64,000 nt of DNA from a virus. Taxonomy: Duplodnaviria > Caudoviricetes. How positions within the stretch are numbered: position 1 is the stretch's first letter; each line of letters begins with the position of its first letter. This document shows, piece after piece, positions 1,184 through 49,384 of the stretch. The notes beneath the pieces are model-generated. The model made no database searches and was not told where the DNA came from. It saw only the letters and a list, made by a program, of their open reading frames with translations. The position numbers and the translations under genes are program-made. The DNA lies in the IMG/VR virus record IMGVR_UViG_3300031994_000020. One strand, 5' to 3'.

Positions 1184-1384
1184 TTATTTTATGTCAATAT
1201 CCATTCCTTTAAACGTCACTATAATAGTATTAGTTGGAGGAAAAGTTTTCTCTAAAATATGAAATACTTCACAAGCAGCATCTATATCCTATTTATCCGT
1301 ATCTATATTTAAAACAATAGTATCATCAGGTTTAACTGGAAATGATTTAAAATCAATTCCATCTAATAATTCTTTAGAAAACAT
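1184..1384 (-). CDS. Small hypothetical protein with one internal TAG
   Basis: MFSKELLDG...DTDK(TAG 1289-1291)DIDAACEVF...DIK-TAA; start overlaps the recJ stop. Confidence 0.6.
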
Positions 1385-3194
1385 AAGCACATTCTCCTAC
1401 TATTTCATAATCTTCAAGAAATAATTGTGGACTAATATTGCCATTCCATTCATTTTTATTACATTTGCAAATAGCATCTATTTCAATATATCCATTTTCA
1501 GATATAAGTTTCTCATATTCTTCATTAGGCATCCTAAATTTTATTAGAGCCACATTATGCGGGAGGGTGATTTTAACTGTATTGGACGCCATCATAGTTA
1601 TCATATCTTTGGTTATCTGTATTCCTTGAATGGCAACCAATGCTTCATCCATATCTTTCCCCCAATATTTATCCATATCTGCTATATCAAGTATTGCTGC
1701 GGGATCTACCTCCTGGGCTCTCCAGACATAGTCTACATAATATATAGGCTCAGATGACATATTTTTTAACATTTCATCAGTTTTATCTATAAACTGATAA
1801 ATATTTTCTCCATATACTTCGCCTTCAAATTCATCTAACTTACCCATTGTAATACCTAAACCAAAGGCTCCTTGATGGCCGACTGTATAATCACAAGCCC
1901 CGGTCGCCGCACATATATCTTTAAATTCAGTTACACCAACTTTATCGCAACCTCGTGCAGAACCTTGATAAGATACAACACCTTCACTATTTATTGTCTT
2001 AGTAAGCATACAGCATGGTCTTTGATACTTTGCCATTAACTTATTTGCAATTAATCCTCTTATTTCTGCCTTAATTGCATTTGGCTCAAGAAGGAATAAT
2101 AGCACTTTGTGATCCATCATATGATTCTCTTCTATAAGGTGTTCAACTAATTCAATACCAGCATCTTCCGCCCTGGTCTGTCTATTCTTTACATTAGTAC
2201 AAGTTCTTATAGCTTGGTCTACAACTCTTTCAGTTTCACCAACTTTATGTCCTCTTTTGTTAGAAGGTATCTGATTAAAAGCATGAAATTTTAACATTGA
2301 ATCAAAAATAAGTTGTTTCTCTTCAATAGTACCAGACCTTGTTATAGCATTAACAAGAGGTACAATATAAAATGTTGCGCCCCATGCGGAAGGTGCATCA
2401 CCTAACTTAAATTTGTTCTTCTGCCACATTTCATATATAAATGGATTAACTATTCTATCAGGGTCAAATCCTTTAAAGATAAGTTGTCTTGTTTCAAAAG
2501 ATTTAAGACTCATCATATCACCATCTAATCCGAGGGCTACTAAATCAAGATAATGGTCAGCATAATTATTATTAGTTACTCTATCTACATATCTACAAAA
2601 TTGATAGACAACTCCCGCACCAGATAAATCTTTATTAGGATATTTTGGAGATTGAGAATTAATTAAATATAAATGCGGGTGATACTCTGTACTCCAGAAA
2701 TCTACTTCCTCTACTTCATGGTGATCTAAGATAATAACATCTATATCATTATCTTCCAAATCTTGCAGCTGTTGTTTGTCATTACTTCCCGCATCTGGTA
2801 TGATTATAAGGTCAGGACCTATATCTTCAAGCCAAGTTGTACAATCCTGAAGTCCATGCTGTTTACCCTCATGCATAAACCAAAATACATGATTATCTAT
2901 CCATTCTTTATCTTTTAAATCAGATAAATAATTAATAAGGATTGCTGCACTTGTATATCCATCACAATCACAGTCTACTATAACTGCAATATGAGAATTT
3001 TTCTCAAGATGATTTAATAGACACTTTGTTGCTGTATCCATTAACTCTTCTCCAAAAGCAGACGGATCATTAATATCTTCATCAGTTAAATTCATATAAT
3101 GCACGAGGTCAGTTTCTTTTAATCCTCTATTAATTAAAATTTGTTGTTTTGCATTATATTTTAAATTGGGCTTATTTATTAATTCATATTTCAT
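1374..3194 (-). CDS. recJ: RecJ-like DHH ssDNA exonuclease
   Basis: DCDCDG, ILDHH, LGLDGDMM, GSARG and GHQGAFG motifs. Confidence 0.9.
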   Translation of the reverse strand: MKYELINKPNLKYNAKQQILINRGLKETDLVHYMNLTDEDINDPSAFGEELMDTATKCLLNHLEKNSHIAVIVDCDCDGYTSAAILINYLSDLKDKEWIDNHVFWFMHEGKQHGLQDCTTWLEDIGPDLIIIPDAGSNDKQQLQDLEDNDIDVIILDHHEVEEVDFWSTEYHPHLYLINSQSPKYPNKDLSGAGVVYQFCRYVDRVTNNNYADHYLDLVALGLDGDMMSLKSFETRQLIFKGFDPDRIVNPFIYEMWQKNKFKLGDAPSAWGATFYIVPLVNAITRSGTIEEKQLIFDSMLKFHAFNQIPSNKRGHKVGETERVVDQAIRTCTNVKNRQTRAEDAGIELVEHLIEENHMMDHKVLLFLLEPNAIKAEIRGLIANKLMAKYQRPCCMLTKTINSEGVVSYQGSARGCDKVGVTEFKDICAATGACDYTVGHQGAFGLGITMGKLDEFEGEVYGENIYQFIDKTDEMLKNMSSEPIYYVDYVWRAQEVDPAAILDIADMDKYWGKDMDEALVAIQGIQITKDMITMMASNTVKITLPHNVALIKFRMPNEEYEKLISENGYIEIDAICKCNKNEWNGNISPQLFLEDYEIVGECAYVF

Positions 3195-3222
3195 TAGTAT
3201 AATCTCCTATTTATTTTTTTAA

Positions 3223-3396
3223 AATGCAGGCAAGGATTTGCACCTTGCATACGGTCTTTATTCTCTATGATTTGAGTATATGTTCTCCAACTGGTTCCGC
3301 TTTTTCGGTGCGTAGTCTCATCTCTCGCATGACCGCCAACCGTCTGCTGAATCCTCACAGATTTGTATTTGCGTCTACCTATTCCGCCACTGCATT
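3223..3396 (-). ncRNA. tRNA-Leu-shell RNA with ~120-nt insert (copy 1)
   Basis: AATGCAG/CTGCATT acceptor stem, GGCGGAATAGGTAGACGC D-arm, GCAAGG-TGCAAAT-CCTTGC T-arm; no canonical anticodon arm. Confidence 0.75.
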
Positions 3397-3400
3397 ATAT

Positions 3401-4513
3401 TTAATATAAGTTGATACGATTTTTATAAAGGTCTAAAAAAATTTCTGGTGTTTTATCAATAGGTGAATCTTTATACCCTAATAAATTATTTTTATCCCAC
3501 ATAAAAGAAATAGTTATATATTTTCCATATTTTTTATGTATATTTTTTAAATTTTTTATAACTCTTTGTGCTTCTGCAGAAGATATATCTGTGAAGTCAT
3601 GATCAAGAGCAATAATAATTTCTTCCGCTCCTTGTTGAATTAAGAGCCAAGTCTGATAATTTATAAAACTAGATCCACATATTGCACAACTAATATCATT
3701 CTCTTCTCCAAAATAACTTCTGTATTTAAGGCAACTTTTTTCTGACTCAAATACAAATGCCTTCTTCATCTTTGCTATATTATTCTTACTATGATTAAGA
3801 TTATAGAGATTAAAACTTAAAGGATGGTTAAACATAGCTCCACCTATGAGTGCAGGACGATATTTGCCATATCTTTCTTCGTTCTCTAAAGCTAAAGCTC
3901 TTTCTCTAATCCCAACTAATCTATTATTTATATCTCTATGAGGAATAACAATCCCGCAGTTTTTCGGGTCAAAGCATATCTCTGCTGCCTTTATAACTTC
4001 TGGAGTAATACCTTCTGCTTCCCAAACTGCGATTCTTGGGTGCGGAAGATTGTTTAAAAACTTTCCATCATATTCTTTAAGTTCAACCTCTTGTGTATTT
4101 ATATTTATATTATTTATTCTATCATATCTATCAAGGAGAGTTAAGTCATCTTTAATATCTATTTCTTCTTCTTTTGTTTGAGTTGGCAAATAACCAAATC
4201 TTCTTGCTATATAATCAATAGCTTCTGGAAGATTCCATGCGGAATCCTCCCTAGGCTTCGGATGTTCTCGGCTCATGACCTTACGAGTTAGTTCAAAGAT
4301 ATCAAAAGTCTCACCACAGTCGGTATAACACTTGAACAAAGTAGTATTGGGATAGTAGTAGAGTTTATGACTCTGACCACAATGACACACAGTTTTAGAT
4401 ACTATTATCTCACCCCTCATCTCAGGCTCTGCATCAAAATCCATGAGAACTTCTTCTATTTGTTCAACTGTTAATTCATTCTTAATTTTATCTTTGTCAT
4501 ATTCGTAATTCAT
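3401..4513 (-). CDS. DNA primase (Zn-finger plus TOPRIM)
   Basis: CHC..H...C.TDCG zinc motif, FESEKS and ALDHD TOPRIM motifs; adjacent to the helicase. Confidence 0.8.
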   Translation of the reverse strand: MNYEYDKDKIKNELTVEQIEEVLMDFDAEPEMRGEIIVSKTVCHCGQSHKLYYYPNTTLFKCYTDCGETFDIFELTRKVMSREHPKPREDSAWNLPEAIDYIARRFGYLPTQTKEEEIDIKDDLTLLDRYDRINNININTQEVELKEYDGKFLNNLPHPRIAVWEAEGITPEVIKAAEICFDPKNCGIVIPHRDINNRLVGIRERALALENEERYGKYRPALIGGAMFNHPLSFNLYNLNHSKNNIAKMKKAFVFESEKSCLKYRSYFGEENDISCAICGSSFINYQTWLLIQQGAEEIIIALDHDFTDISSAEAQRVIKNLKNIHKKYGKYITISFMWDKNNLLGYKDSPIDKTPEIFLDLYKNRINLY

Positions 4514-4555
4514 TTACCATTACAACCTTTCTTGTTAGCTGTAGTTTAATAAAAA

Positions 4556-6683: not shown

Positions 6684-7712
6684 TTATTCTTTAACTAATT
6701 CTTTTAATTCTTCAAGTATAAGGTCTACTGCCTCAACCTGATCTCTTGTGACATCCTTCATTTTCTTTCCCTTGCCCAGATAACGTTCAATAATCTGAGA
6801 AATACGAGGCTGCCAATATTCTCTAAATTTAATACCATCATCAGTTTCGGCTTTAGCATCTGTAGAACCAGGAATATTAGCTATGATTTCGCTAAATTCT
6901 TTCATCATTTTATCAAAATCTAAATCTTTACTTGTGTCTATATAAAGATTATTTGATTTATCAGTAAAATATTCTGTTCCATCTTCTTTCATCTGCTTAT
7001 CAATAGCATCACTAATAGCTTTAACTAAATCATTATATGTAAAGTCTATATAATCTGGTGTATATTTGAAGCGGGAGCCAGCTACATATCGAGGAGTTCC
7101 ACGCATAAATAACTTGGTAGATGTTGCACCATCCGCAGTTTGCACTGATCTTGAATATGCTATAATATCGCACATACGAGATACTATATTTCTAGGGCGA
7201 GTTCCCAATGTAGGAACTATTTGGTTAAATTCTTTACCAGTTTCATCAGTAAAAGTCTTATCAGTAGCATGGCTTATAAGTACAAGACCATAATTCATTT
7301 GTACTATTGAACGAAGTGCTTCATCGAATTCCTTACCAACGAGAGCATATCCTTTTCCATATCCAATATCACCAATAGCATCAACATTATTATTAGCACA
7401 TATATATTTTTCACAATAATCATAAGCAATATCTGCGGTATCTATAATAATTGTTTCAAACTTAGACTGTACTTCAGGATCTTTTAATTGACGAAGTGCT
7501 CTCCTAAATTCACTCTATGAATTAATAGGTTGAGCCATTGCTCCGGGAATTGCATTGTAGCCTTTTTCAAATGCTAAAAGCAAATGATTAGGGAACTTAG
7601 TTGCAGTTGTTGTCTTTCCAGACTTAGGTTCTCCGTAGAAGAAGACTGAATATCCGCGCATATCACGACTTACTTGATGTGGTTTTATATCTAATAAATT
7701 AAAATCTGCCAT
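6684..7712 (-). CDS. Sak4-like AAA ATPase; one gene read through TAG 7515-7517
   Basis: YGEPKSGKTT...AQPINS(TAG)SEFRRALRQL...IIIDTAD...GYGKGY...LISHA; the two ORF-track fragments are in frame (343 codons). Confidence 0.85.
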
Positions 7713-10807: not shown

Positions 10808-11527
10808 TTATATTTCTCCTTTTATATCTTCATATATTTTTTTAATTTCTTCTTCTAAAGAAGTAAATTTATTAAATCTATAAAGAATAATATTATGTTC
10901 TTTACAATATATATTCTTTAAATTATCTATATATTGCAATCTTAAAAAATCATTTTGAGTTAATTTCTAATTTTCTTCATAATTAAAATGCTGTCTTCCA
11001 TCATATTCAATTAAACAATAAATTTTATTATTATGAAAAATTGCAAAATCAAAACGTGGATAACCTCCTTTATTAGTAATTAAATCTTTAAAACTAAATT
11101 CTTTTTTATATTCAATTTTATAAAAATTTAACTAATAAGAGATTTGAGTTTCTCCCTATGACGAAACACATCCACAACTTTTTGAATTTCCGTCTATTAA
11201 ACTACCTCTAAAAACCTCTTTTATTGTACCACAATTTTGACATTCACATATCTAAAAATTAGGTTTTTTAGCTTTATCAATTACTTTCTAAAAACCAAAA
11301 GTCTTTCCTATTAAATTATCTTTAATATGTAATGGTCTATCTTTAGCTGCACAACTTTTACATTTAGTTTTAAGATTATCTACTCTTACTGAACGAATAT
11401 TTCCACATTCTAAACATTTACATTTCTAATATCCGCGATGTTTTTCATTAGTTAAATCATTATCTTTTTCAATAATTTCATTAGTTCCAATAATTTGTCC
11501 TGGAGTAAAAATTAAAGATGCTGGCAT
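10808..11527 (-). CDS. Free-standing homing-type endonuclease (CxCxCG repeats plus PD-(D/E)XK/Vsr-like domain) with 5 internal TAG
   Basis: Missed by the ORF track. GY(TAG)KCKCLECG, GF(TAG)KV, NF(TAG)ICECQNCG, SCGC, RFDFAI, IEYDGRQHF; TAGs at 11426, 11288, 11252, 11156, 10967. Confidence 0.8.
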
Positions 11528-11528
11528 T

Positions 11529-12623
11529 TTATCCTATCCCCTTATTTCCATTTAAACCATAATTATATGTGTCATACAGTTCAATGTAATACTTTTCTTT
11601 TTCATCCAGTAATTTTGCATCACATTCTTCAAGAACTTCAAAAGCAAAATTAGATAAACCGCTTTCTCTCATAGCTTTATATAATTTATTTTCAGTAGTT
11701 ATATTACCTACTCCTAAAGCATTTTTACAATGCTGTTTCTATCTATCACAAATATCAACACTTTGACCTATATATGCAAGTCCTGTATTTAAATCTGTAA
11801 GTTTATATATTCCACAGGCAGTAGCTTTTCCTATAATCTGCGGGAACCGCACTTTCGCAATAGGTTGATAATAATTACTCTAAATTATTTTATCTATAAC
11901 AATAGCATTAGTAATTTGAGATTGAATTGATTTTAATAATTTTATATCTTTAAGATTAACTTCTGACATTTTTAATCTGAAGTTATCATTATTTTCTTTT
12001 ATTTCTTGCTCTCTTAATTGAGCTTTAAGTGCGGCGTCGCGGGTAGAACGAATCTTGTCAAGGACTCCTTGAGCCGCCGCGATTTCTTGATTAATTTTTT
12101 CTTTTTCTTCCTCTAACTATTTATTATTTTCTTCTTTTGTTAATTCTAAATTCTTTATTTCCCGCTCTTGTGCATCTGCATATGATTGATTTAATCTTTC
12201 AAGATTCTCATTATATTCTTTTTCTTTTTCTTCATAACTTTGAATAAGTGCATTACAATAATTTTCAAATGCTACTTGAGATAATTTTTTTTGATTATCA
12301 ACTGTATTTGTTACATTTTTCTGTAAATCTTCTAACTGTTGTTGTTTATTTTTTATATTAGAATCAATATGTTCTAATGTCATTTTTTGTTCATGTATAT
12401 CAAGTTTATATTGTTGAAGAGTCTGCTCATTTTGAGCAATTTCTTCATTTTTTTGTTCTATTAAAGAATCTAATTCATTACTTCGCTCTTGTTTTAAATC
12501 ATTAGCTTTATCTATTTCTGCATTTATTTGGTGAGTTTGCTTTTTAATTCTCCTTATCTAAACAGAACTAGACATAGCTAACATCAGTCCAATAAAAAAC
12601 ATTAATGCAGAAATCTATGTCAT
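11529..12623 (-). CDS. N-terminal TM helix, coiled coil and C-terminal GIY-YIG domain protein with 5 internal TAG
   Basis: MT(TAG)ISALMFFIGLML...KII(TAG)SNYYQP...CGIYKLT...AYIGQSVDICDR(TAG)KQH; 365 codons in frame. Confidence 0.8.
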
Positions 12624-13331: not shown

Positions 13332-13400
13332 TTATGATTTCATTTTTATATATTCCTCTTCGGTTATTATAGGAATATTTAATTTTGCAGCATCTTTATT
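13332..13400 (-). pseudogene. Orphaned former 3' end of ligA (BRCT tail)
   Basis: Encodes NKDAAKLNIPIITEEEYIKMKS-TAA, parallel to the current LigA end KAKQLKIKIISEEEYLKMKTS. Confidence 0.75.
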
Positions 13401-14289
13401 TTAAAACAAATTCACTTGTTTCTAATAATAAATCTTTAAGTGATATATTGTTTAAATGGATATAAGGTATTCTTATTATAGGTATGTTATGTTCTTTGCA
13501 ATATTGATTTTTAAAGTTGTCTCTTTGCTGTAATTTTTCAAAATTTTCTTTAGTACACCATCCATTATTTGTATAGGTAAAATGTTGTTCTCCATCATAT
13601 TCAATAATATATTTATTATTTATATAAAAATCAAACTTAGCTTTATTTTTTGTTTCTGGAAAAATACAATCTTCAAAACAATGTTGATATTTAAAAGGAA
13701 TATTATTTTCTTTTAAAATAGTAATAATTGTTAATTCTCCAAATGATTTTTGACATCCGCACGATTTTGTTAATCCTTGTATTAAACTAGATTTATTAAT
13801 AATTTTTTTATTACCGCATTTACATTGACATAACCACATAGTCCCATTTTCTGATGGAGCCTGCTCTAATACAGTTAATAGTCCATATTGATTTCCAGTA
13901 ATATCAATTGTTCTTTTTTTTGCACTAACTTTATTACCACAATCTTTACATTGTTTAATATATCCATTTTTTAAATTACTTGTTGTTACATATGTTATAT
14001 TACCACAATTACATTGACACTTCTATTTTCCATCATTAGTTCTTTCTAATACTGTTAATGAATTAAAAGTTTGCCCTAGTAAATTATCACATTTAGATTT
14101 TGCAGTATCATATCTAGAACATCCACAATTAGTAGATCTTCCTCCTTTTAAACTACTTGCTTCTACATATTTCTGAGTCCCGCATTCACATTGACAAAGC
14201 CAATGAATTTTATTCTTAATAGAAATATGTTTATCTAAAACAGTCCATTTACCATATTGTTGACCTGTTAAATCTATAAATTTTCCCAT
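13396..14289 (-). CDS. Homing-type endonuclease (three WxCxCxCG repeats plus PD-(D/E)XK domain); read through TAG 14023-14025
   Basis: HWLCQCECG, GK(TAG)KCQCNCG, MWLCQCKCG, KFDFYI, IEYDGEQHF. Confidence 0.85.
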
Positions 14290-19251: not shown

Positions 19252-20289
19252 CGTGTTATTCCAATGTTGCCATTGGCACTGACTATTTCTTCTCTCCGGC
19301 TTACGCATTAACTGCCATCATAGAGACCACCTTTTCCAACTACGTATCAATAGTAGTTGTACTCTCCGACAAAGGAGATAGTCGATACAGGTTATACTAT
19401 AATATTTTTCCAATTTTGATATGACCAAATATTAGTAAAAGAACCTTTAGTAAGTTTATCTTTATAATCTTCATAAACGTCTTTTAATTGTTCACCATTT
19501 TTTCTTCTTAAACGAATTTGTTTAACATCTTCTTCTGTTAAACGAGTTCTTCCATTTTGAGAACCTTTATTTCCAGTATCGTGTAAATGGTATTCTTTGT
19601 TTTCTTTAGTATATACTTCAGGCATAACATTTTTCCATGTTTCACCTTTCCATATTTTATTAAAGCCAGACTCTCCAATTCTTTGATTATAAAGTAAATA
19701 AACTTCTTTTTTTCTTTCTAAATTTGCATATCTTGTTCTAATATCAATAACATCTTGCTCTGTTAATTTATGTCCTGGGTGATTATCTCCAAAATTTGTT
19801 TCTCCACCACTTGTGACATTATATCCATTGTTACATGAATTATAATATGTAATCCAATACTGCTCTTTAATATTTAATTGTTCTGGTTCACATTCTTCAA
19901 TTATTTCAAAAGTAAAATTTTCTATCCCATACTTTTGAAAAGCTAAATATAACGGTTTATTTTTTTCTCTTTCCCAATTATATTGAAGTTTATGTTCTTG
20001 CCATCTTTTTTCAATATGAATGCTTTGTCCAATGTAGCAATGATTATTGATATTATTAGTAATTTTATAAATTCCTATCATTTATTTATCTCCTTTATTT
20101 AATAGATTAGGAGATAATCTCATTTATTATAGTATATTCCCACGAGATTATCTTCAATATTATATAATTTTTATTCATTTCAGTCTGTCCTGAAATGTCC
20201 AAAAATTTTTGAAGACTACCTCGTTAGCCGCTTTTATTAGGCGACCCCGCTGATAAGCGGAAAAGTGGTTAAGGGCCAGACTACCTCGT
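19252..20289 (-). mobile_element. Group I intron in gyrB carrying a GIY-YIG endonuclease
   Basis: 5' exon ends AAAGGGT (U) and pairs with guide GCCCTT; intron ends ...AACACG (omega-G); P7-like GACTA/TAGTC; removal restores KGLGEM. Confidence 0.9.
19392..20081 (-). CDS. Intron-encoded GIY-YIG homing endonuclease
   Basis: MIGIYKITN...CYIGQS...RWQEH...GYN. Confidence 0.9.
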   Translation of the reverse strand: MIGIYKITNNINNHCYIGQSIHIEKRWQEHKLQYNWEREKNKPLYLAFQKYGIENFTFEIIEECEPEQLNIKEQYWITYYNSCNNGYNVTSGGETNFGDNHPGHKLTEQDVIDIRTRYANLERKKEVYLLYNQRIGESGFNKIWKGETWKNVMPEVYTKENKEYHLHDTGNKGSQNGRTRLTEEDVKQIRLRRKNGEQLKDVYEDYKDKLTKGSFTNIWSYQNWKNIIV

Positions 20290-22170: not shown

Positions 22171-23484
22171 TTATGCTTTTTGAGTATATTTTAAATTAAT
22201 CTATCCAGCTCCTGATTTTAATTTACCCTATCCATTCTGCTCTTCAATTATAGTATATATTCCTTTATCTTTTATTGTTCCATTTACTTTATATCCTGCT
22301 CCAGGACCTTGTCGATAGTTAAGCGCACCCGCAGTTACTTTTACTATATAAGGTTTAAATGCGGGAGTCGCCTTTGGCGGAATAGGAGCTTCTTTCACAG
22401 GCTCTGTCTATGTAGGCTGTTTAATTATTGAAGCAGCAGATTCTCCTAAAGAAGCAGTTACTTTATCGGCTAATTCAGCCATTCTTGCCATCATCCAATC
22501 ACCAGGGCAACTTTTCTTTGCGAACTATCTATGTACAGTTAATTTCATTTCATTCTCTTTTGGATTATATGCAATAGCTTTATCTTTGTCAGCAATCCAA
22601 ATAAGTTTAGTTTTATTATATCGTTTACATATATCAATACATAAATCTATTAATTTATTATATACCTTGCTATTAAAAGCATATGGTGTTGTTTTATCTG
22701 ATGCACATTCAATAGTAATTGCTCTATTATCATTTGCAGCGTTTGATGAACACCATGATCTATTAATCTCGTCTACTATTAAACAAACACGACCTTCAGT
22801 TCCTATACCATAGTTACAAGAAGCTTGTCTCCCCTTCGGGAAACAACGACCTATGGCTTCCGCAGTTAATTGACCTACAACACAATGAGGTGTAATTGTA
22901 TCCACCGCATGATTACGTTTCCCGCTATGGTTAGGACTTTTTACTTCACAATCTATTAAAGGAGAATTTCCGCCGGAAGTGTTTCTTACTTCTACTTTTG
23001 TTGCAGTAGGAGTGGAAGTCGCCTGATCATATTTTGTTAAGTTATATGTTTTTACTACATTATATACATTATCAACATAATCCAAAGAAGTAGCATATTC
23101 TGCATCTTTAATAGCTTTAAGATAATCATAAGGATTATTTGCTTGTTTTACTTTTGCATAATTTGAAATATTTATAAATTGAAAATAACCTTCAACACCT
23201 TTTTCCATATTAGCAAAAGAAAACTAAGATGTAGAGATAGGTATATAATTACCATTAATTGTTTGTTCAGAACCAGTATCAGAAAATGTACCATTACTAC
23301 AAGTAACTCTATTAGGTCTATATTTTAAACCAAAATAATTATGATATGTTGCTTTTTTACTTGTTCCAAAAGCACTCTCTAAACATGCTTGAGCAATTGC
23401 GGCAGATGCTACTTTAAAGCCATATTGTTTTGAATACTTTTGACAATATGGAGCAATTGCTTCAATAAATTCTTGTTTAGTCAT
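22171..23484 (-). CDS. Multidomain endolysin (glucosaminidase, amidase_2, SH3b) with 5 internal TAG
   Basis: AQACLES, HNYFGLK, TPHCVVG, ITIECAS, LTVHR(TAG)FAKKSCPG, NG(TAG)GKLKSGAG(TAG)INLKY; TAGs at 23224, 22525, 22408, 22228, 22201; 438 codons in frame. Confidence 0.9.
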
Positions 23485-23496
23485 TTTGAATCCTCC

Positions 23497-23952
23497 TTAA
23501 CCTACAGTATTATCATCACTATCTATGTTATTAGTAATATTATGTATTGCTATATCATGTATTACTCCGCCTTCTGTATTTTCAGCTTTTGCTTTTAATG
23601 AGTATATACCATAAGATAATGTTTCTCCAATGACTGCTCCTATAAGAGTAATTAATGGAGTAAAATCTGGCATGAGTCCAGTTAAATTAGCAATTATAAG
23701 ACTTTGAACAGTAACCTATCCTGTAAATATTTCTAATACAGTAAAGTTTATAAATAAAAAAATTAGAAATAACTTACTCTATGAAGGAAACTTTATTCGT
23801 CTTTTTTCTAATTTTAATTCTTTTTTTTCTTTAGCAATTTTATTTAATGTCATTAAATGCAAATGAGCCTCATTCTAATAATTATATTTTAAATCAGCTT
23901 TTTTTTCAAGCCTTTTTAATTTAAAATCATAAATCATTTTTCTTATGCTCAT
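23497..23952 (-). CDS. Two-TM membrane protein, holin candidate, with 3 internal TAG
   Basis: Missed by the ORF track. FPS(TAG)SKLFLIFLFINFTVLEIFTG(TAG)VTV...PLITLIGAVIG...KAKAENTEGG; directly upstream of the endolysin. Confidence 0.7.
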
Positions 23953-23993
23953 AATATCTCCTCCCATAAAAAAGACCTTCAAATGAAGGTCTT

Positions 23994-31446: not shown

Positions 31447-32820
31447 ATGAGTGTAACAAGAGTTATGGGTATTACATCTGGTATGGATACTGAAAGTATC
31501 ATTAAACAATATTCTTCTCGATATACCGCAAAGAAAGATAAAATTTGGAAACAGAAACAATCTTTGCAATATAAAGAAGATGCTTGGAAAGAATTGAATA
31601 AAGATATTTATAGTCTTTATACAAAACTTTCAACTAATAGGCTTTCCGGAACATATCAGAAATCAGAATTAACTTCTTCAAATGAAAAAGTAGCGATTGT
31701 ATCTGGTAATAAAGAGACTAGCTCTCAAGAATTAACAGTAAATCAAATTGCTACTCAAACTTTTATAACAGGTGGAGAAGTTGACAAGAAAGAGCCTATT
31801 GGCGTTAATGGCAATATAACCGTTGTTGTAGGCGGCCAGCACAAAGATTTAAATATTACTCCGGATATGTCTATGGAACAAGTAGCAAAGAAACTTAGTG
31901 AAGCGGGAATTGCTGCAAGTTTTGATGAAAATAATATGAGATTATTTTTATCTTCACAAAAAACAGGAGAAAATAGTGAATTTGATGTAATTGGTGATGC
32001 GGGAGTTCTTGCTGCATTAGGGTTAGGGTCCGCCGCAACAAAAACTAATGGTCAAGATGCTATGATAACTCTTAATGGAGTTCAATTTAAATCAGACAAT
32101 AATCACTTCGATATAAATGGTTATAGTATTGAGGCTAATTCAGTTGGTAGTACGACTATTAAGACTAAAACTGATGATAAGATTTTCGATACAATTAAAG
32201 ATTTTATTGAAACATATAATACTTTAATTAAGAAAATTGATACAGCTTATAATGCAAGTAATAAGGGCTATAAACCATTAACTGATGAAGAAAAAGAAGT
32301 TTTAAGTGAGAAACAAGTTGATGAATGGGAAAAAGTATTAAAAGATTCTGCTTTGTATAAAGATAGTTCTTTATATGAAATAAGTAACGTATTAAAGAAT
32401 ACTATGAGTACCACATCTATTGATGGAATGAGATTATCTACAATAGGAATTAATCTTGGTAATTATTTTACCACAGATAAAAATGAGCGTGGAGTCTATA
32501 CAATAGACGAAGATAAACTCAAAGAAGTTATTAATAAAGATCCGAATAAAGTAACTAATTTCATTACTAAACTATCAGCTAAATTATATGACAATATAGA
32601 CAAGAAAATGAAGTCTACAAATTATAGCAGTGTTTATACTGTATATAATGATAAACAGATTAAAGCTGATATTGAAGATTATGATAAAAAGATTAAAGAA
32701 TGGGAAAAGAAAATCGAGCAGATTGAGGATAAGTATTATAAGCAATTTGCTAAAATGGAAACACTTCTTTCTTCAAGTCAAAGTAAATCCAATTATTTCG
32801 CAAGTTATTTCGGAATGTAA
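31447..32820 (+). CDS. fliD: Flagellar filament cap protein
   Basis: RVMGITSGMDTESII, GQDAMITLNG, IKDFIETYNTLI, YKPLTDEEK..LSEKQVDEWE, YYKQFAKME. Confidence 0.93.
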   Translation: MSVTRVMGITSGMDTESIIKQYSSRYTAKKDKIWKQKQSLQYKEDAWKELNKDIYSLYTKLSTNRLSGTYQKSELTSSNEKVAIVSGNKETSSQELTVNQIATQTFITGGEVDKKEPIGVNGNITVVVGGQHKDLNITPDMSMEQVAKKLSEAGIAASFDENNMRLFLSSQKTGENSEFDVIGDAGVLAALGLGSAATKTNGQDAMITLNGVQFKSDNNHFDINGYSIEANSVGSTTIKTKTDDKIFDTIKDFIETYNTLIKKIDTAYNASNKGYKPLTDEEKEVLSEKQVDEWEKVLKDSALYKDSSLYEISNVLKNTMSTTSIDGMRLSTIGINLGNYFTTDKNERGVYTIDEDKLKEVINKDPNKVTNFITKLSAKLYDNIDKKMKSTNYSSVYTVYNDKQIKADIEDYDKKIKEWEKKIEQIEDKYYKQFAKMETLLSSSQSKSNYFASYFGM

Positions 32821-32866: not shown

Positions 32867-34378
32867 TTATGCAGTTATGGCTTCGTATCTCTTACTGAGA
32901 AGTTTCTGAAGACAGAGTTCCCAGCCAGTCACACCAGTTATAACATTTTCAAAGATTACAGGTGAAGCACCACTTACGTAGGTTACACTTTCATCTTCAT
33001 CGAGGATTGTATTTTCTCTCGCCTGTACGTTCCAATAAATGAGCTTAGGCATCTTGTGACCGTGGCGTGCCCACTTCTCACGAACCTTAGCCATTTCTGT
33101 AGCTACAGGACGATTCTTATGTCTCCAACCATATGAGGTTCCCCAATCAGACATAGCATCAATTTCCATGTCAGAAATGACAACTATTTTCTCAGGTATA
33201 TCTTCTTCTTTTGTAGTAGGACGATCTGCTATTTCAAGAAGCATATCAAAAGTTCTTGTAAGGTCAGTATTCTCACAGAGGTTGGTTCTGTAGATACGTT
33301 CAACCTTATCAACGAAATCTGTTCCTCTTATCTCAATAAGCTGAGGTCTTGAGCTGAAGCTAATGTAGTGATTCTTAAAAGGACCTCCTGCTCTCTCAGC
33401 ACAGTACATACCAAGAGAGATAGCTATATTGATAGGAGCAGATGCTTCGTTACCGGTCATAGAACCTGAAGTATCTACAACGCAAAGCATATTGGACTGT
33501 TTTCCATTGAAATAATCCTTCTGATTATCCCAGTATTTCTCTATCATGGCTCTATCGGTTTCAGAAAGAGAAAAACTACTATTCCAATAGTCCATATGGC
33601 TTGTAGCCTTAGCCACGATCTCATAAGGATAGAGAGTAGCAGCATTTACAGTTGTACTTTCGCTCTTTGCAAACTCTTCATACTTCTTTGCTATGATGTC
33701 ACGTCTAGCAAATGCGTTCTTGTATATAAGTCCAGCCTTAGAGGGAATCTTATCAAATTCAATTTCATCCCATCTGTTTTCAGACATAAGTTTCTCTACT
33801 ATATTAATGCGGGCGCGCAGGTCTGAGAGAATTTTTCTATACTGTTTATGTGTAAGACCAAGGTAGTCCCGCACTTTATTACCCATAGCTATTGTTTCCT
33901 TAGAAGATGCGTTCTCTGAAGGAAGCCACTTTGCAAGTAAAGAAGGAGTCTTGCTTTCAAGATCAATAGCAAGCTGTTCCTTGATGAAATCAAGTGCATC
34001 CTTTTCAACCTTTGTGCCAAAGCAAGCATATACTACGTCATCCCAACGTCTATACTCAGGTATCTGCTTTATGAGTTTGCGGGCTACATTAGCGTACTTA
34101 TTAGCAAGCCAATTAAAGCATATTCTAAAATAGCGGCGTTCACCCTGACCACCACGACAGTCACCAAGATAAAAGAGGCACTTAAGAGCGAGATCTGCAT
34201 TTTCCTCATATGCTTCCTTGAAAAGCAGTATACAGTCCTCATTAGTTCTTGAACGATATGCTCCACCAAAAGCAAACATATCATAGACCTTCTTCATTGT
34301 TGAAGAAAGGGCTGTTCCTCCATTCTCAGTGAGCTTGTAATTTGCATCATTCTTCATTTCATTTAAAAAAGCGTTCAT
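32867..34378 (-). CDS. DUF2828-family (TROVE/Ro60-like helical plus vWA) protein
   Basis: LTENG, GQGERR, RWDD, AKWLPSE, VDTSGSM MIDAS, ISDMEID, IYWNV. Confidence 0.85.
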   Translation of the reverse strand: MNAFLNEMKNDANYKLTENGGTALSSTMKKVYDMFAFGGAYRSRTNEDCILLFKEAYEENADLALKCLFYLGDCRGGQGERRYFRICFNWLANKYANVARKLIKQIPEYRRWDDVVYACFGTKVEKDALDFIKEQLAIDLESKTPSLLAKWLPSENASSKETIAMGNKVRDYLGLTHKQYRKILSDLRARINIVEKLMSENRWDEIEFDKIPSKAGLIYKNAFARRDIIAKKYEEFAKSESTTVNAATLYPYEIVAKATSHMDYWNSSFSLSETDRAMIEKYWDNQKDYFNGKQSNMLCVVDTSGSMTGNEASAPINIAISLGMYCAERAGGPFKNHYISFSSRPQLIEIRGTDFVDKVERIYRTNLCENTDLTRTFDMLLEIADRPTTKEEDIPEKIVVISDMEIDAMSDWGTSYGWRHKNRPVATEMAKVREKWARHGHKMPKLIYWNVQARENTILDEDESVTYVSGASPVIFENVITGVTGWELCLQKLLSKRYEAITA

Positions 34379-36586: not shown

Positions 36587-36931
36587 TGGACTTGACGGGA
36601 GTCGAACCCGTGTCCGCGATTCCTATTCCAAATCAATTTTTTACGCAATAGTGTTTTAAAGTGTTCACTCACTGAGCCGACAGGTTATACCTGTTTAGTC
36701 CCACCACTTGTTTTTTCTAAAACAAGAAACTATATAGCCTTTCTTATAAGAGTGAGCATTGACTGGCAAAAGTATTACTCACAATTCCTAAACTCAAGCT
36801 GCAAGAGCAACTTTAGTAGGGAAAGAAACAATTTTCTTTGCGTTTATTTTAAATTAGTGATTGCATAACGCGCATATCATTTCGTGCGAATTGATTTTTT
36901 TATTGAACCTCGTCGAATACCTTACAAGCCC
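36587..36931 (-). ncRNA. ssrA: tmRNA
   Basis: GGGCTTG..TTCGAC 5' end, G3-U70 pair, T-arm ACGGG-TTCGACT-CCCGT; tag reading frame AKKIVSFPTKVALAA-TGA at 36794-36841. Confidence 0.93.
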
Positions 36932-41275: not shown

Positions 41276-43117
41276 TTATCTATCATTATATAGATATATA
41301 TTCTATGCTTCATTCTAAGCACAAACGTCATTTGTTGTCCATGTAATTGATGAGCTTACAAGTGAATGGCTACCTGAAGTTGACATTGCATTTTTCATAT
41401 TTCCGCCAATACCAAAATGGATCTCTTTTCTTTTTTCACCATTTGTTGATTGAAATAAACCATCCTAAGCATTAACATTCATACCCGTCATATTAGTAAT
41501 TGTAATAATATTTTCAAAATTTTTACAATTAGCAAGCATATATCCTACACTTGGACAATTAACTGGTATTGTTAATGGTTGATTAAAATTATAACAATTT
41601 GAAAAAGTAAATGTTAATCTAACGTTACTATTTGGTAATTTTATAGGTTGGTTAAATGAATGAGCACTATTAAACATACTTGTCATATCATAAACAGTAT
41701 CAGGTATATTAATAGGCTGATTAAATGACTAAGCATTATAAAACATGTTACTTGTATTAGTAATGTTATTAGGTATATTAAAAGGTTGGTTAAATGATCG
41801 AGCATTGTAAAACATCTATGTTACTGAACATCCGTTTCCATTATTATACTATTGTATATTTAATGAAGCATTAAATGGACTATTATCAAACATCCTTTCT
41901 GTATTCTGTGCATTTTCAATATATACAGAAGAATTTAAATTACTTGAACTAAAAATACCTGATAATCTTACTGGTTTATTAGAATAAATATTAACAGAAC
42001 TATTAAAATTGTAACAGTAACCAAATGCAGAAGAACAATCAGCCTATTCAAATTTTGAATTACAATAAAAATTCATGGGTTGATTAAAATTTCTACAATT
42101 CTAAAACATTTGATAAGCATTCATTGTTTCAACATAAACAGGACTATTAAAATTAATACAATTTGTAAAACAGTATTGACTCTAAGTAACATTTTTAATA
42201 TTAACAGGACTATTAAAATTAAAGCAGTTATAAAAACAATTAACTATACTTGAATTTAGATTAATATCATCAATAATTATATCTATAGGTTGATTAAAAT
42301 TATAAGCTTCTCTAAAACAATTTACCATATTAGTTACATTATGTGGTAAATTAAGAGGTTGATTAAAATTAAAACAATTTTGAAACGTCCCCATCATCTG
42401 TAAATAAATATTATTAGTAGCATTTGATAATATAGTTATAGATGAATTAAAATTTCTACAATCATAAAGCATATTTCCTATATTCTTAACATTTTCAGGT
42501 ATTGTAATAGGCTGATTAAAATTATTACAATATCCAAATGCAGCAAATAATGATGTGCAAGTTTCTGGAAAATTTACTCTTTGATTAAAACTTTCATATT
42601 GCTACATTAAATAATCCAAATTTGTAGCGTCTTCAGCTATTGTAATAGGCATATTATAAGCATTTTGAAAACGATTCATAGGGAATGTTCCACCTATAAT
42701 AGTATTATTAGTAAAAGATATTGAAAAATCTACACTTTCACTATAAATCTAAGATTTAATATATCCTGCACTGTGTTCTATATTACTTTTTAGCTAGGTG
42801 ACCCTCTAGGAAGTACCATAATAATCTATATTAAAAAAATTATCATAATTCACAGGATTATTTTTTAAATTTGAATAAAGATAATCCATAGATGATATTA
42901 AATTTTCATTAATATACTTTTCTACTGTTATACTAGCATCAGTACCACCTGTTGTTTTTGTTAATATATGATAACGATATACAGTAGAAGATCCACCGCC
43001 AGTATTTATGTTATTAATGGCGGCCGCCATTTCAGAAGGCTTATAAGTTGTTGCAACTCCCGCCTTGCTTCTTATACTATTTGCTATATCTAAAAAGATA
43101 TTTGTTAATGTACTCAT
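41276..43117 (-). CDS. BspA/DUF285-like repeat surface or fibre protein with 13 internal TAG
   Basis: One 614-codon frame joining three ORF-track fragments; repeats of MFxNCxxFNQPIxIP. Confidence 0.8.
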
Positions 43118-43135: not shown

Positions 43136-43891
43136 TCAGAAATAAGTATCTAATACTTGAGTTATTGCTATATTTATTTGCTGATCGGTATAATCATTTG
43201 CCGCATCAATTTGTGTATCAACATAACTCTTACTTACTTTATTTCCTAATTCTGTATTGACTTTAGAACTTGACCATACTTTACTAACATCAACAGAAGT
43301 ATCATCTATTTCTGCTGCAACAGCTACTGCATCTGTTATATAATATGTTGTTCCATTAAGTTTCTCTGATGCGGGAAGTGCGTCGTACTGAGCTTTGGTC
43401 AACTCCATTGAAGGATCTTGACGTTGAGGTACCCATTGAGTACCATCCCATAAATAAAAAATCCCATCTGCAATACAATAATACATTTTTCTATCAGCAG
43501 AAGTGAATCTAGGTGGAAGATCCTCTTCAGTAGCGACTATATCATAGTTACCATCGGGACTACCTATTTCATTCCATTTTGTATCATCAAAAACCATATC
43601 TTGGTTTTCTCTTATACAACGATAAAAACAAGAAGCATATATAGCCAAATCACCATACTTATAAGTATCTCCCGCAGTCCATTCATAAATAGGAGTACCA
43701 TCATTTACAAAAGCTTGACTTTCTCTTGTTTCCCCTTCATCATTCTTCTACTCGAATGTAATTATTGATTGACCATCTTGTTTAGTTATGGATTTTACTT
43801 TACATGGTGCGCCTTTAAGACCGCCAAATTGAGCCGCAGTTTCATCTGTGTACTTTTTGGCAAGCGCATAAGCTGTAACTGATAATCCCAT
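43136..43891 (-). CDS. Tail-fibre-like protein, read through TAG 43748-43750
   Basis: MGLSVTAYALAKKYTD...ITFE(TAG)KNDEG...FYLWDGTQW...LTKAQYDAL...KVWSSSKV. Confidence 0.7.
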
Positions 43892-43905
43892 GATTCAATC
43901 CCTCC

Positions 43906-44076
43906 TTATAATAAATGATACTCTTCATCATTTCCAAGCATCTATACTGAGCTATCTTCTAATACAATAGCAGTACTACCAACGCCAACATTGGTAGGGA
44001 GATCTTCTATATCTTCAAGGGAATCAGCGACTATTTCAACAGTTCCTGACTGTCCATTTGAAATTATTTTGAACAT
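43906..44076 (-). CDS. Small structural-type protein with one TAG
   Basis: ...DIEDLPT..GVGSTAIVLEDSSV(TAG)MLGND... Confidence 0.6.
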
Positions 44077-44295
44077 AGTTTTGCCCTCCTTTATAGTTCT
44101 ACAATATATAAAAAAATGCGGGAAATGAATATCCTATTTTGCCCTAAAAAAATTCCAAACACCTATTTTGTTCCCGGTAGCCCGATCGCTTGCCGCCCAG
44201 CAGATTATTTTTCCTTAAACTAAATAAACGCCGAAGATATAAAATCTTCGGCAAATAAAAAAGCCCCAATGAACTTAATCATCAAAGCTCCCCTA

Positions 44296-44390: not shown

Positions 44391-44498
44391 AAGACTTCCA
44401 TATTTGAGCCGGGGACTGGATTCGAACCAGTATCTTCTAATTTTGTTAGATGCACTACCTTTATACTACCCTGGAAATTATTTTGCTGATGAAGTCTT
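44391..44498 (-). ncRNA. ACAGCAA-type stem RNA 3 enclosing a tRNA-like cloverleaf with a 5-nt anticodon loop
   Basis: AAGACTTCA-TCAGCAA...GAAGTCTT; cargo TCTAA-CAAAA-TTAGA and ACTGG-TTCGAAT-CCAGT. Confidence 0.7.
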
Positions 44499-44991: not shown

Positions 44992-44993
44992 CG

Positions 44994-45085
44994 CAGGAGC
45001 TGTAGGACTCGAACCCACACCCGAGGCTTTGGACACCTCTGTCCCGGTTTTAGAGACCGGTGTGCTGCCATTACACCAAGCTCCC
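44994..45085 (-). tRNA. Amber suppressor tRNA(CUA) derived from tRNA-Trp, with a 25-nt variable arm
   Basis: CCGGT-CTCTAAA-ACCGG (anticodon at 45051-45053); acceptor GGGAGCT/AGCTCCT-G73; T-arm identical to the neighbouring tRNA-Trp. Confidence 0.93.
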
Positions 45086-45094
45086 AATTAATAG

Positions 45095-45165
45095 CAGGAG
45101 TTGTAGGACTCGAACCCACCTCTCTGGTTTTGGAGACCAGGGCACAACCCCTATACCAAACTCCC
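45095..45165 (-). tRNA. tRNA-Trp(CCA)
   Basis: CTGGT-CTCCAAA-ACCAG; acceptor GGGAGTT/AACTCCT-G73. Confidence 0.92.
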
Positions 45166-45171
45166 ATAATC

Positions 45172-45281
45172 AAGACACTATATAAGTTTGGATTCGAACC
45201 AAAATCTTTAAACTTTTACATCTAATATTCTACCTTTAAACTACTCTCCCTTTGCGGAAGCAACATCGCTGTTAGTGTCTT
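45172..45281 (-). ncRNA. ACAGCAA-type stem RNA 6 enclosing a degenerate tRNA
   Basis: AAGACACTA-ACAGCGA...TAGTGTCTT; cargo with D-like arm and TTTGG-TTCGAAT-CCAAA. Confidence 0.7.
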
Positions 45282-45516: not shown

Positions 45517-45518
45517 AG

Positions 45519-45591
45519 TACCCAAAGTAGGATTCGAACCTACAAAAACTACGTCCTTAGCGCAGTGCGTATGCCATTCCGCCATTTGGGC
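45519..45591 (-). tRNA. tRNA-Leu(AAG), short variable loop
   Basis: CTGCG-CTAAGGA-CGTAG, Leu-type D-arm, A73. Confidence 0.8.
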
Positions 45592-46116: not shown

Positions 46117-46118
46117 AA

Positions 46119-47197: not shown

Positions 47198-47198
47198 A

Positions 47199-47482: not shown

Positions 47483-47555
47483 TTCTCATTCTGGGAATCG
47501 AACCCAGTCTCCAACCCTCTTTAGGGTCGGGTGCTTCCCATCACACTCAATGAGA
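47483..47555 (-). ncRNA. tRNA-like RNA with an 8-bp anticodon arm capped by a tetraloop
   Basis: TCTCATT/AATGAGA acceptor, CCGACCCT-AAAG-AGGGTTGG, CTGGG-TTCGATT-CCCAG. Confidence 0.65.
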
Positions 47556-48074: not shown

Positions 48075-48103
48075 TTAAAATATATAATAAAACTTCCTTA
48101 TAT

Positions 48104-48181
48104 TGAGCCGTCAAGGACTCGAACCTTATCTCCCGATTAGCCCACAGGTGTCTTTTTACCGCAATTAGACGATCCAACCCC
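48104..48181 (-). pseudogene. Degenerate tRNA
   Basis: D-arm GTCT..AGAC and T-arm AAGG-TTCGAGT-CCTT; poor acceptor and anticodon arms. Confidence 0.5.
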
Positions 48182-48343
48182 AGAAGTCTTATTAACTTTT
48201 TATCTTATATAAATATTATATCATATTTTTTTAAGAAAGTCAAATTTTTTATTTTCTTTATTTTATTTTCCTTTCTTAACTTTCTATAAATATTATATCA
48301 TATTTTTTTATAAAAGTCAAATATGATTTTTTAATAAAGAATA

Positions 48344-48429
48344 CGGGTGCGATAGGATTCGAACCTACATGGAGTTTCCTCGCACTGACGGGTTAACAGC
48401 CCGCTGCCAAGCCTTTTGGCGACACACCC
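48344..48429 (-). tRNA. tRNA-Asn(GTT) with an unusual long variable arm
   Basis: GCGGG-CTGTTAA-CCCGT, 19-nt variable region, G73. Confidence 0.85.
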
Positions 48430-48557
48430 AATTAATAATGCAGACGTTACCACCGCTGCCACCAAAGAATAACTTTCCCAACCTCGTGCACAGGTTGCTC
48501 TGGCCCCCAACTATTAGTTGTTCAGAAAGTTTTTCATGCTACACTTACAAAAGCAAG

Positions 48558-48628
48558 TACGGGATGGTAGAATTGAACTACCTCAGCCACCTTATCAGAG
48601 TGGAAAGCTACCATTACATCAATCCCGC
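48558..48628 (-). tRNA. tRNA-Ile(GAT)
   Basis: CCACT-CTGATAA-GGTGG, A73. Confidence 0.85.
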
Positions 48629-48778
48629 AGATGCTGCGTTAGTTTAACGACCAACCCCGCAGCTAGTTGTCCAATCTACCGCGAAAATATAAGATAAATG
48701 AAAATATTTTATTTTCTTCTTTCTTTATCTTATATAAATATTATATCATATTTTTTTATAAAAGTCAAATAAAATCTT

Positions 48779-49384
48779 TTATTTAAAATAATGATCTTGT
48801 ATCTGCTTTTTAGGGTTCTTTACTGTCGTATTAAAATACAAATAAGAACTCATTTCAATATTTTCACCCTTATAAAACACACTTGTATTTCCATCCAAAA
48901 CATATTTTGCGGCATTTATGGCATCTTCAGGCAAGGTTCCCGCATCATACATTTTCAATGCCTTTGATAAACGCCCATTTGATGCAGGTCCAAATTGTCC
49001 TTTTTCATAAATCACATCTTTTATAGTGTCAGCAAAGTAAGTTTCGTGATTCACTCTGTTCAAAACTACAATCCCCACAGCTTGTTGACCAGCCTCACAC
49101 TGGTTTCCCGCCTCACTCTAAATGATAGAAGATAAATACCTTAAATCTTCTTCATCATAAATTTTCTCCATTTCAATAATTTCTTCTATTATTTCTTCCT
49201 CTTGTTCAACAATAGAACAATCTGAAACAGATACGGTATTAGTAGATACACCCTAATTCAAAATGATAGGGCTGCCATCATGCACTCCCTGATAATATCC
49301 TCTGTAATAAGACTCTCTTAAAACTATAATTGAAAGTGCTAAAATAGCTGTAATTACTAATACTGTTAAAATTTTCTTCTACAT
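48779..49384 (-). CDS. SleB/Hydrolase_2 cell wall hydrolase with N-terminal TM and 3 internal TAG
   Basis: M(TAG)KKILTVLVITAIL...YLSSII(TAG)SEAGNQ...VVLNRV...VIYEKGQF...HYF; 202 codons. Confidence 0.85.

Follow-up and report, generated by a model that had tools for sequence, protein, structure and literature searches.

Which amino acid does the amber codon TAG specify in the rumen phage recorded as IMGVR_UViG_3300031994_000020? The stretch analysed here, 64,000 nucleotides long and called the window in what follows, has 33% G+C and is part of a 146,601-bp contig on which the phage genes of the window lie nearly all on the minus strand. An earlier note, made from the letters of this DNA without database searches, had counted 42 in-frame TAGs in 14 otherwise intact genes and proposed that TAG is read as tryptophan (Trp, W). 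Counting only verified genes, that is, genes confirmed by homologues or by a close relative from cattle, we found the same 42 in-frame TAGs, distributed over 12 rather than 14 genes between positions 6684 and 49384, with no internal TAA, TGA or frameshift in any of them. On comparative grounds it is very likely that TAG encodes tryptophan in this phage and that TAA and TGA stay stops, and with nearly the same confidence we hold that the whole is best explained by a TAG = Trp code decoded by the phage's own tRNA.

When TAG is treated as a sense codon, the fragments called on the minus strand under code 11 merge into single open frames, and Pfam and PHROG domains span the TAG positions in endolysin, Sak4/AAA_24, DUF285/BspA-like, GIY-YIG nuclease and SleB/CwlJ-like hydrolase families as well as in two HNH-type nucleases. 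Among 84 open reading frames (ORFs) called with TAG as sense, 66 stop at TAA, 18 at TGA and none at TAG, which bears out the earlier observation that the intact genes end in TAA or TGA, and the motifs quoted in support of tryptophan are all present in the sequence. Coding density, to which the earlier note had looked for a decision among codes, is indeed highest with TAG as sense (82.7%, compared with 73.1% under code 11, 77.1% with sense TGA and 80.8% with sense TAA) but does not discriminate among the stops, and the number of ORFs fused across one stop is similar for TAG, TAA and TGA. Because ORF-length statistics do not discriminate in such AT-rich DNA, we did not use them as evidence, and the case for in-frame TAGs rests on homology.

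The cattle relative (ENA contig Cattle_ERR2019381_scaffold_760851, 143,131 bp), reached through a protein 95% identical to the HNH-family nuclease of the window, is an independent assembly with about 86% nucleotide identity to the window, and 18 of the window's TAGs are also TAG in it; related genes from other samples likewise have TAG at the same conserved site. The TAGs of the window are not assembly errors. That they are true stops in broken, split or decaying genes, or sequencing or assembly errors for TGG, as the fragmentation under code 11 might suggest, is exceedingly improbable beside 42 TAGs without one TAA, TGA or frameshift in the same genes, domains that cross them, 18 TAGs kept at 86% identity with protein conservation continuing downstream, TAG at the same site in other samples and a matching suppressor tRNA.

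A few TAGs are less clear-cut as sense codons. The sole candidate for a TAG terminator is that of orf137, which is TAG in the cattle relative too and lies just 10 codons before the end of the frame, so that sense and stop are ambiguous there. Three further small ORFs with TAGs, at 1184-1525, 43842-44057 and 44036-44269, fall outside the verified set; in the first, three of four TAGs lie in a 5' overlap, which is probably non-coding because two of these three are TAA in the cattle relative.

The amino acid was read from homologue columns, in which TAG was translated as X and the residue aligned with it in relatives was tabulated. Summed in the manner of Codetta over 26 usable sites, the log2-odds came to +46.6 bits for W, −3.5 for tyrosine (Tyr, Y), −20.5 for phenylalanine (F) and −34.2 for glutamine (Gln, Q). 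Serine and leucine, at which the long arm of the suppressor tRNA described below hints, are ruled out by the same columns, with −49 and −41 bits, respectively. Conserved columns were overwhelmingly W, neither mostly Gln nor random, and in the homologue alignments of the window genes no conserved Q column held a TAG.

Near-invariant W columns face TAG at codon 66 of the Sak4-like ATPase (W, written TGG, in all 80 viral relatives compared, and again TAG in the cattle relative), at site 248 of the GIY-YIG nuclease (149/150 homologues; TGG in the cattle relative) and at codon 122 of orf264 (77 of 79 relatives, with TAG in one; TGG in the cattle relative). Site 295 of the GIY-YIG nuclease is W in 108 of 146 homologues, and several database homologues stop exactly at residue 294, indicating that these records were cut at a TAG. 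In the HNH-family nuclease, with about 120 homologues, W ranks first at sites 42, 100 (94/118), 132 and 195, ties with leucine at site 88 and comes third at site 140 (19/118), where the cattle relative has TGG. The second HNH-type nuclease provides an internal comparison, as W occupies the position of its codon 89 in the paralogous repeats of the same protein; the homologue column there has W 31 times and Y 20 times. In the endolysin, sites 320, 419 and 428 are W in relatives and site 87 is W in near and F in distant relatives, and the cattle relative has TGG at sites 87, 359 and 428. The cell-wall hydrolase has W at site 89 in 79 of 119 homologues, the 'Q' entries of this column being TAG codons that the database translated as Gln, and its site 44 is TGG in the cattle relative.

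A standard-code relative, the 122-kb IMG/VR contig G001, has W at 12 of the TAG sites that it covers, including all three of the holin-like ORF (where the cattle relative has one TGG and one TAT) and codon 48 of the tail-fibre-like orf251. This last codon is TAG in the cattle relative, in which codon 153 of the same gene is also TAG and faces TGG in the window. The single TAG of orf99 is TAT in the cattle relative, and the C-terminal KRK and stop of this small protein are conserved past it.

Comparison with the cattle relative, of which about 76 kb was read and 9293 codons were aligned, shows with which codons TAG exchanges. Opposite a TAG of the window stood TAG 18 times, TGG eight times, TAT twice and TTA, TTC and TTG once each, and opposite a TAG found in the cattle relative the window had TGG once and TTG once. 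TAG and TGG were thus exchanged nine times in total, TAG and TAT twice, and TAG and CAG or CAA never; none of 283 Gln codons and none of 447 window Tyr codons faced a TAG. The rate of change from TAG to TGG (26%) resembles that of the synonymous pairs CAG to CAA (25%) and AAG to AAA (28%), and the TAG-to-TAT rate is similar to the TGG-to-TAT rate, from which we conclude that TAG acts as a synonym of TGG.

Codon composition points the same way. TGG makes up 0.20% of codons in genes with at least three TAGs and 1.59% in TAG-free genes (Fisher 8e-9), and TGG and TAG together come to 1.98% in the TAG-rich genes, whereas neither Tyr (5.3% in TAG-rich versus 4.9% in TAG-free genes) nor Gln (3.7% versus 3.1%) is depleted. 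The HNH-family nuclease, GIY-YIG nuclease and hydrolase genes lack TGG altogether, while their homologues contain 0.7-1.7% W (median 1.65% for the HNH nuclease). The proposal that TAG means tryptophan is therefore supported by homologue columns, by TGG as the partner codon and by the depletion of TGG in TAG-rich genes.

Repeats within single proteins of the cattle relative sharpen this picture. A tail protein of 498 residues (L294:10001-11497), encoded with 28 TGG and 4 TAG, is built from ten repeats of 41 residues in which three columns are W; all four TAGs fall in the W columns (9 W + 1 TAG, 9 W + 1 TAG and 7 W + 2 TAG) and none in the invariant YY columns. A partial gene next to it has 19 TAG and 2 TGG in 419 codons, with TAG in the same W-TDG-x-IYY motif. 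The tail genes of this phage (L294:1-11497) are very rich in Trp codons, TAG accounting for 50 of the 122 TAG and TGG codons.

The window also encodes a tRNA with anticodon CUA, hereafter the suppressor, which adjoins the phage tRNA-Trp(CCA) (Table 1). Its body is of the tRNA-Trp type (G1.U72, G2-C71, G3-C70, G5-C68 and G73): the acceptor stem is nearly identical to that of the phage tRNA-Trp, the T arm is identical, and both tRNAs have G73. Judged from sequence, the suppressor arose by tandem duplication of the phage tRNA-Trp. Its anticodon is CUA rather than CCA, and CCA is found instead in the loop of an extra arm. ARAGORN labels the gene tRNA-Pyl; this candidate was rejected, as the tRNA forms an ordinary, long-armed cloverleaf and not the compact Pyl-type core with its 3-nt variable loop and short D loop, homologues have W where the phage has TAG, and the label reflects the CUA anticodon alone.

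In place of the 4-5-nt variable loop of a class I tRNA, the suppressor has a variable region of 25-26 nt that folds as a hairpin of 5-6 bp. In the window and the cattle relative, this arm has a 5-bp stem (GAGGU/GCCUC) and a 7-nt loop, GUCCAAA. The cattle-relative suppressor differs at three positions, among them a compensatory change from U-A to C-G in the T stem and a change from G1 to A1. A third copy, found by a gapped pattern scan of metagenome contigs, lies on JAEEGL013603757.1 (144,572 bp; L325), near a tail-fibre-like gene with three TAG and no TGG, and its arm has a 6-bp stem (GACGGG/CCCGUC) and the loop CUCCAAA. Three of five comparable stem pairs are altered on both sides between the phages, and the U-CCA-AA of the loop is unchanged. 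Taking the three suppressors and two tRNA-Trp genes together, all 114 of 114 cloverleaf and arm cells pair, and 11 pairs are changed on both sides. In the phage and in candidate hosts, the anticodon loop of tRNA-Trp is CUCCAAA, and since the arm loop is thus the Trp anticodon loop, the arm predicts tryptophan independently of the protein evidence. Extra arms that copy an anticodon loop are not described in the literature searched. In IMG/VR, an exact pattern scan for the suppressor gave no match and a gapped scan gave 30, all of them chance or ordinary tRNA-Trp; five IMG/VR relatives are without the suppressor tRNA.

Tryptophan at TAG would equally follow from adenosine-to-inosine editing of the mRNA, in which UAG becomes UIG and is read as UGG by the ordinary tRNA-Trp(CCA), the tRNA(CUA) being incidental. 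Such editing would explain the TAG/TGG exchanges and has the same protein-level outcome as tRNA suppression in the tests run. We consider it very improbable, given that three phages have kept a dedicated tRNA(CUA), which shows compensatory changes and a conserved spare Trp loop, that a Pfam scan of the window ORFs, which was not exhaustive, returned no deaminase family, and that the flanks of the TAGs have no obvious common motif or hairpin.

How, then, would a tRNA-Trp with anticodon CUA be charged and used? The window carries flagellin and FliD genes, an unusual phage cargo, and the flagellin, 85% identical to flagellins of metagenome-assembled genomes of rumen Lachnospiraceae, serves as a host hint. 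From it, we infer a standard-code host of the Lachnospiraceae. Candidate-host genomes of this family contain prfA, encoding release factor 1 (RF1), in five of five cases, and a C-terminal domain of the glutaminyl-tRNA synthetase (GlnRS) type in four of five. With such a host the code of the phage differs from that of the host, and the suppressor must compete with RF1 and escape GlnRS. Neither a release factor nor a tryptophanyl-tRNA synthetase (TrpRS) was found among the window ORFs scanned or in the five IMG/VR relatives.

The proposed decoder is the phage tRNA(CUA) derived from the duplicated tRNA-Trp. In E. coli, TrpRS recognises its tRNA by G73, the anticodon and the first pairs of the acceptor stem (PMC2965240). 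The suppressor retains the acceptor-end marks for a bacterial TrpRS, namely G73, a weak 1-72 pair with U72, G2-C71 and G3-C70; the tRNA-Trp of the five candidate-host genomes has A1-U72, G2-C71, G3-C70 and G73, and A1-U72 is also present in the suppressors of both relatives in place of the G1.U72 of the window. The change from CCA to CUA costs the tRNA C35, a major TrpRS mark, and gives it U35, which GlnRS favours. The arm with its spare Trp anticodon may ensure that the host TrpRS still accepts the tRNA, or may fend off GlnRS, acting as a handle for TrpRS, as a shield against GlnRS or lysyl-tRNA synthetase, or as both. More specifically, the arm could be a functional spare anticodon whose CCA loop is read by the host TrpRS while the ribosome reads CUA, an idea that we put forward tentatively and rate at somewhat less than an even chance.

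Several observations weigh against reading TAG as tryptophan, or against parts of the mechanism, and are gathered here. The identity of the amino acid is drawn from comparative evidence, and that of the host from a single host-like gene, the flagellin. A host without GlnRS, in which Gln mischarging could not occur, would have removed one difficulty, but this explanation fails on the GlnRS-type domain found in four of the five candidate hosts. E. coli charges a tRNA-Trp bearing the anticodon CUA with Gln (Yaniv 1974, as cited in PMC2965240), and of 29 phage tRNA(CUA) tried in E. coli extract, 28 inserted Gln, one Ala and none Trp (PMC12636597).

These results speak for TAG = Gln (code 15), the usual TAG recoding in phages (bioRxiv 10.1101/2021.08.26.457843; PMC9523058), as in crAss-like, Lak and other recoded gut phages, and the one applied in public gene calls: records translated 'with TAG = Q' include the hydrolase of the window (P0241), a nuclease of the cattle relative (P0121) and distant hydrolases from three other samples (P0244, P0252). 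These records, however, put Gln where the family has Trp, implying that TAG = Trp extends to relatives with protein identity as low as about 50%, where it is currently mislabelled. With Q at −34 bits and W at +47, no TAG in a conserved Q column, no exchange between TAG and any of 283 Gln codons in the close relative as against nine with TGG, a depletion that affects TGG and not Gln codons in the TAG-rich genes, and an extra arm that carries the Trp and not the Gln anticodon loop, we judge glutamine to be highly unlikely.

Tyrosine, or an ambiguous Trp/Tyr reading, survives somewhat better and is nonetheless improbable. Bacterial tRNA-Tyr is a class II tRNA, and tyrosyl-tRNA synthetase reads U35. 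The suppressor joins U35/A36 and a long arm, features in which it resembles bacterial tRNA-Tyr, to a Trp-like acceptor end. Among all residues Y ranks second, with −3.5 bits, and TAG pairs twice with TAT in the cattle relative. The most direct evidence comes from the gene for the DUF285/BspA-like leucine-rich-repeat protein, likely a host-recognition or surface protein, whose 13 TAGs lie outside W columns, in variable repeat positions or Tyr columns. Its codons 601 and 605 fall in a conserved C-terminal motif, Y-N-x-x-Y-N-I-Y, with Y in 30 and 20 of 33 homologues, respectively, and Y is the commonest residue at four other TAG sites of this gene. No close relative of the gene was found in viral or metagenome contigs, so that its TAG sites allow no near-synonymous test. 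We read 601 and 605 as probable Tyr-to-Trp replacements, each one transversion from TAT, which may have been favoured if TAG is selected in late genes. Against tyrosine stand the discriminator G73 of the suppressor, where the phage's own tRNA-Tyr has A73, the TAGs in near-invariant W columns, the repeats of the cattle relative, in which TAG is confined to W columns and absent from the invariant YY columns, and the composition of the TAG-rich genes, in which Tyr codons are not depleted and TGG is nearly gone. In addition, TGG exchanges with TAT about as often as TAG does, and the arm loop is the Trp anticodon loop.

Returning to tryptophan as the preferred reading, the distribution of TAG among the genes suggests what the code may do for the phage. 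TAG predominates in genes for lysis, tail-fibre-like and DUF285 proteins, and the same holds for three of the four homing nucleases; the six TAG-rich genes have 36 TAG and 4 TGG. By contrast, 27 TAG-free genes, among them those for DnaB, gyrase, ligase and RecJ, have about 155 TGG; without TAG, the replication genes read the same under either code. Translation of the lysis, tail-fibre-like and most homing-nuclease genes would accordingly be gated by the suppressor in competition with the host RF1, a usage pattern in keeping with the gating of late genes that has been proposed for other phages with recoded stops (bioRxiv 10.1101/2021.08.26.457843), if these genes are indeed expressed late. In the window, A follows directly on TAG at 27 of the 42 sites and on TGG at 62 of 180 (p = 7e-4), possibly a context that favours suppression over RF1; this bias was not reproduced in the tail genes of the cattle relative, where repeat motifs confound it.

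Some TAGs lie very early in their genes, at codon 2 of the hydrolase (first base 49381), codon 3 of the GIY-YIG nuclease (12617) and codon 6 of the HNH-family nuclease (11536), all on the minus strand and all TAG in the cattle relative; without a suppressor they would prevent even a truncated product. The fourth homing nuclease of the window, a GIY-YIG protein with the motif YIGQSIHIEKRWQEH (19392-20081, minus strand), has seven TGG and no TAG, unlike the three TAG-bearing nucleases, and may be a more recent arrival or be expressed early.

Table 1. Suppressor tRNA, TAG-bearing genes and flagellar genes of the window.
Feature	Coordinates	Strand	TAG	TGG	Remarks
Suppressor tRNA(CUA), 93 nt	44993..45085	-			ARAGORN; Rfam tRNA match 54.2 bits
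tRNA-Trp(CCA), tandem paralogue	45094..45165	-			ARAGORN; 9 nt upstream of suppressor in transcription direction
Sak4-like single-stranded-DNA-annealing ATPase	6684..7712	-	1		Codon 66, INS-TAG-SEF; Pfam AAA_24, PHROG 124
orf264, 264 residues	9390..10184	-	1		Codon 122, LFW-TAG-KE; two ORFs under code 11
HNH-family homing nuclease	10808..11551	-	7	0	PHROG 559
GIY-YIG homing nuclease	11529..12623	-	5	0	Pfam GIY-YIG
Second HNH-type nuclease	13396..14289	-	1		Codon 89, in third copy of internal xW-C-C-CG repeat
Endolysin (glucosaminidase + amidase_2 + SH3-like tail)	22171..23484	-	5	3	Pfam/PHROG
Small hydrophobic protein, putative holin	23497..23982	-	3	0	Just upstream of endolysin
orf99, 99 residues	37317..37616	-	1		Codon 88
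orf137, 137 residues	39102..39515	-	1		Codon 127
DUF285/BspA-like leucine-rich-repeat protein	41276..43117	-	13	1	Pfam DUF285, 8 stretches
orf251, tail-fibre-like, 251 residues	43136..43891	-	1		Codon 48
SleB/CwlJ-like cell-wall hydrolase	48779..49384	-	3	0	Codons 2, 44, 89; Pfam Hydrolase_2
Full-length flagellin	27295-28113	-			Flagellin_N + Flagellin_C
FliD cap protein	31447-32820	+			

Taken as a whole, the window encodes replication and repair proteins (a RecJ-like DHH protein, DnaB, Sak4, a Clp protease, an NAD ligase and gyrase A/B), lysis proteins, an RNA ligase, flagellin, FliD and a Ro60-like DUF2828 protein, together with a cluster of 22 tRNA genes and a transfer-messenger RNA (tmRNA). 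No close relative was found among deposited phage genomes. The RNA ligase (PHA02142 OB + RNA_ligase), an AAA_33/KTI12-like kinase and a metallophosphoesterase are clustered (25804-26879 and 28450-29700, minus strand), and this group looks like a tRNA-repair set beside the large tRNA cluster, a function suggested by the domain families. The Ro60-like DUF2828/DUF7788 protein (32867-34378, minus strand) adjoins the tRNA region, and the tmRNA (36587-36931, minus strand), with the tag AKKIVSFPTKVALAA, is kept in both relatives.

The tRNA cluster contains further odd genes, all on the minus strand, at 48343-48430, 45518-45591, 47483-47555, 44406-44475 and 45179-45250. They include a tRNA-Asn(GUU) with a long extra arm, the loop of which is not an Asn anticodon copy, a tRNA-Leu(AAG) without a long arm, a tRNA with an 8-nt anticodon loop, a degenerate 'Phe(AAA)' tRNA and one Rfam tRNA match missed by ARAGORN. 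Both relatives have tRNA(UCA)-like genes at the places of odd tRNAs, and no in-frame TGA was seen in their genes. In the cattle relative (L292:17872-20330), the gene for NrdD, an anaerobic ribonucleotide reductase, is split by the gene calls into two parts that flank an HNH_3 nuclease gene, which suggests an intron- or intein-type insertion.

How does this code compare with those already described? Phages whose code is unlike that of their host show only TAG to Gln and TGA to Trp in the survey of Borges et al. (bioRxiv 10.1101/2021.08.26.457843), and among recoded gut and rumen phages the crAss-like, Lak, Garnet and Amethyst groups have TAG to Gln and the Agate, Jade and Sapphire groups TGA to Trp (Borges et al., bioRxiv 10.1101/2021.08.26.457843; Peters et al., PMC9523058). 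In the literature searched, with most subscription journals outside it, the phage recodings were TAG to Gln, TGA to Trp and TGA to Gly only, and UAG to Trp was found only in Balanophora plastids (PMC13128298), in agreement with the earlier note, which had named TAG = Gln and TGA = Trp for phages and the plastids of Balanophoraceae (table 32) for TAG = Trp. The present phage is like those of Borges et al. in that its in-frame stops are concentrated in lysis and structural genes with code-neutral replication genes and in that it encodes a suppressor tRNA, and its host may likewise use the standard code; it is unlike them in the pairing of TAG with Trp.

With the Balanophora plastid code (NCBI table 32) the phage shares the codon table, TAG for Trp with TAA and TGA as stops, and the route to it, duplication of a tRNA-Trp and exchange of its CCA anticodon for CUA. 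In the plastids, this duplicated tRNA-Trp(CUA) and the loss of plastid RF1 are held responsible (PMC13128298). The lineages differ, the window belonging to a tailed phage, by its phage replication, lysis and tRNA genes, and not to the Balanophoraceae; there, the code operates in an organelle of a plant, which imports a nuclear tRNA and has lost plastid RF1, whereas here it belongs to a virus whose presumed bacterial host family keeps RF1, and the extra hairpin copying the Trp anticodon loop is not described there. The E. coli suppressor su+7 (supU; trpT with C35 changed to U), as cited in PMC2965240, likewise has a tRNA-Trp body with anticodon CUA and reads UAG. By that account su+7 is charged mainly with Gln, whereas the comparative evidence here says Trp, and the phage tRNA has the added arm with its spare CCA loop.

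If true, a phage code with TAG as Trp would add another natural genetic code to those of the bacterial world, one otherwise known from the plastid of a parasitic plant. It also has a practical side, as gene callers that detect TAG recoding apply table 15, so that the public entries for this phage and its relatives show Gln at each of these Trp positions, including tryptophans of catalytic and cell-wall-binding domains. It further raises the biochemical question of how a tRNA-Trp that has lost C35 and gained U35 avoids GlnRS, keeps Trp and competes with RF1, to which the conserved hairpin repeating the Trp anticodon loop offers a directly testable answer. Should the arm hypothesis be right, the hairpin would be a natural design for orthogonal suppressor tRNAs, and decoding and amino-acid identity would be physically split on one tRNA. 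The arm loop would then predict the meaning of the recoded stop codon, Trp in this case, and some phages now filed under code 15 would really use TAG as tryptophan.

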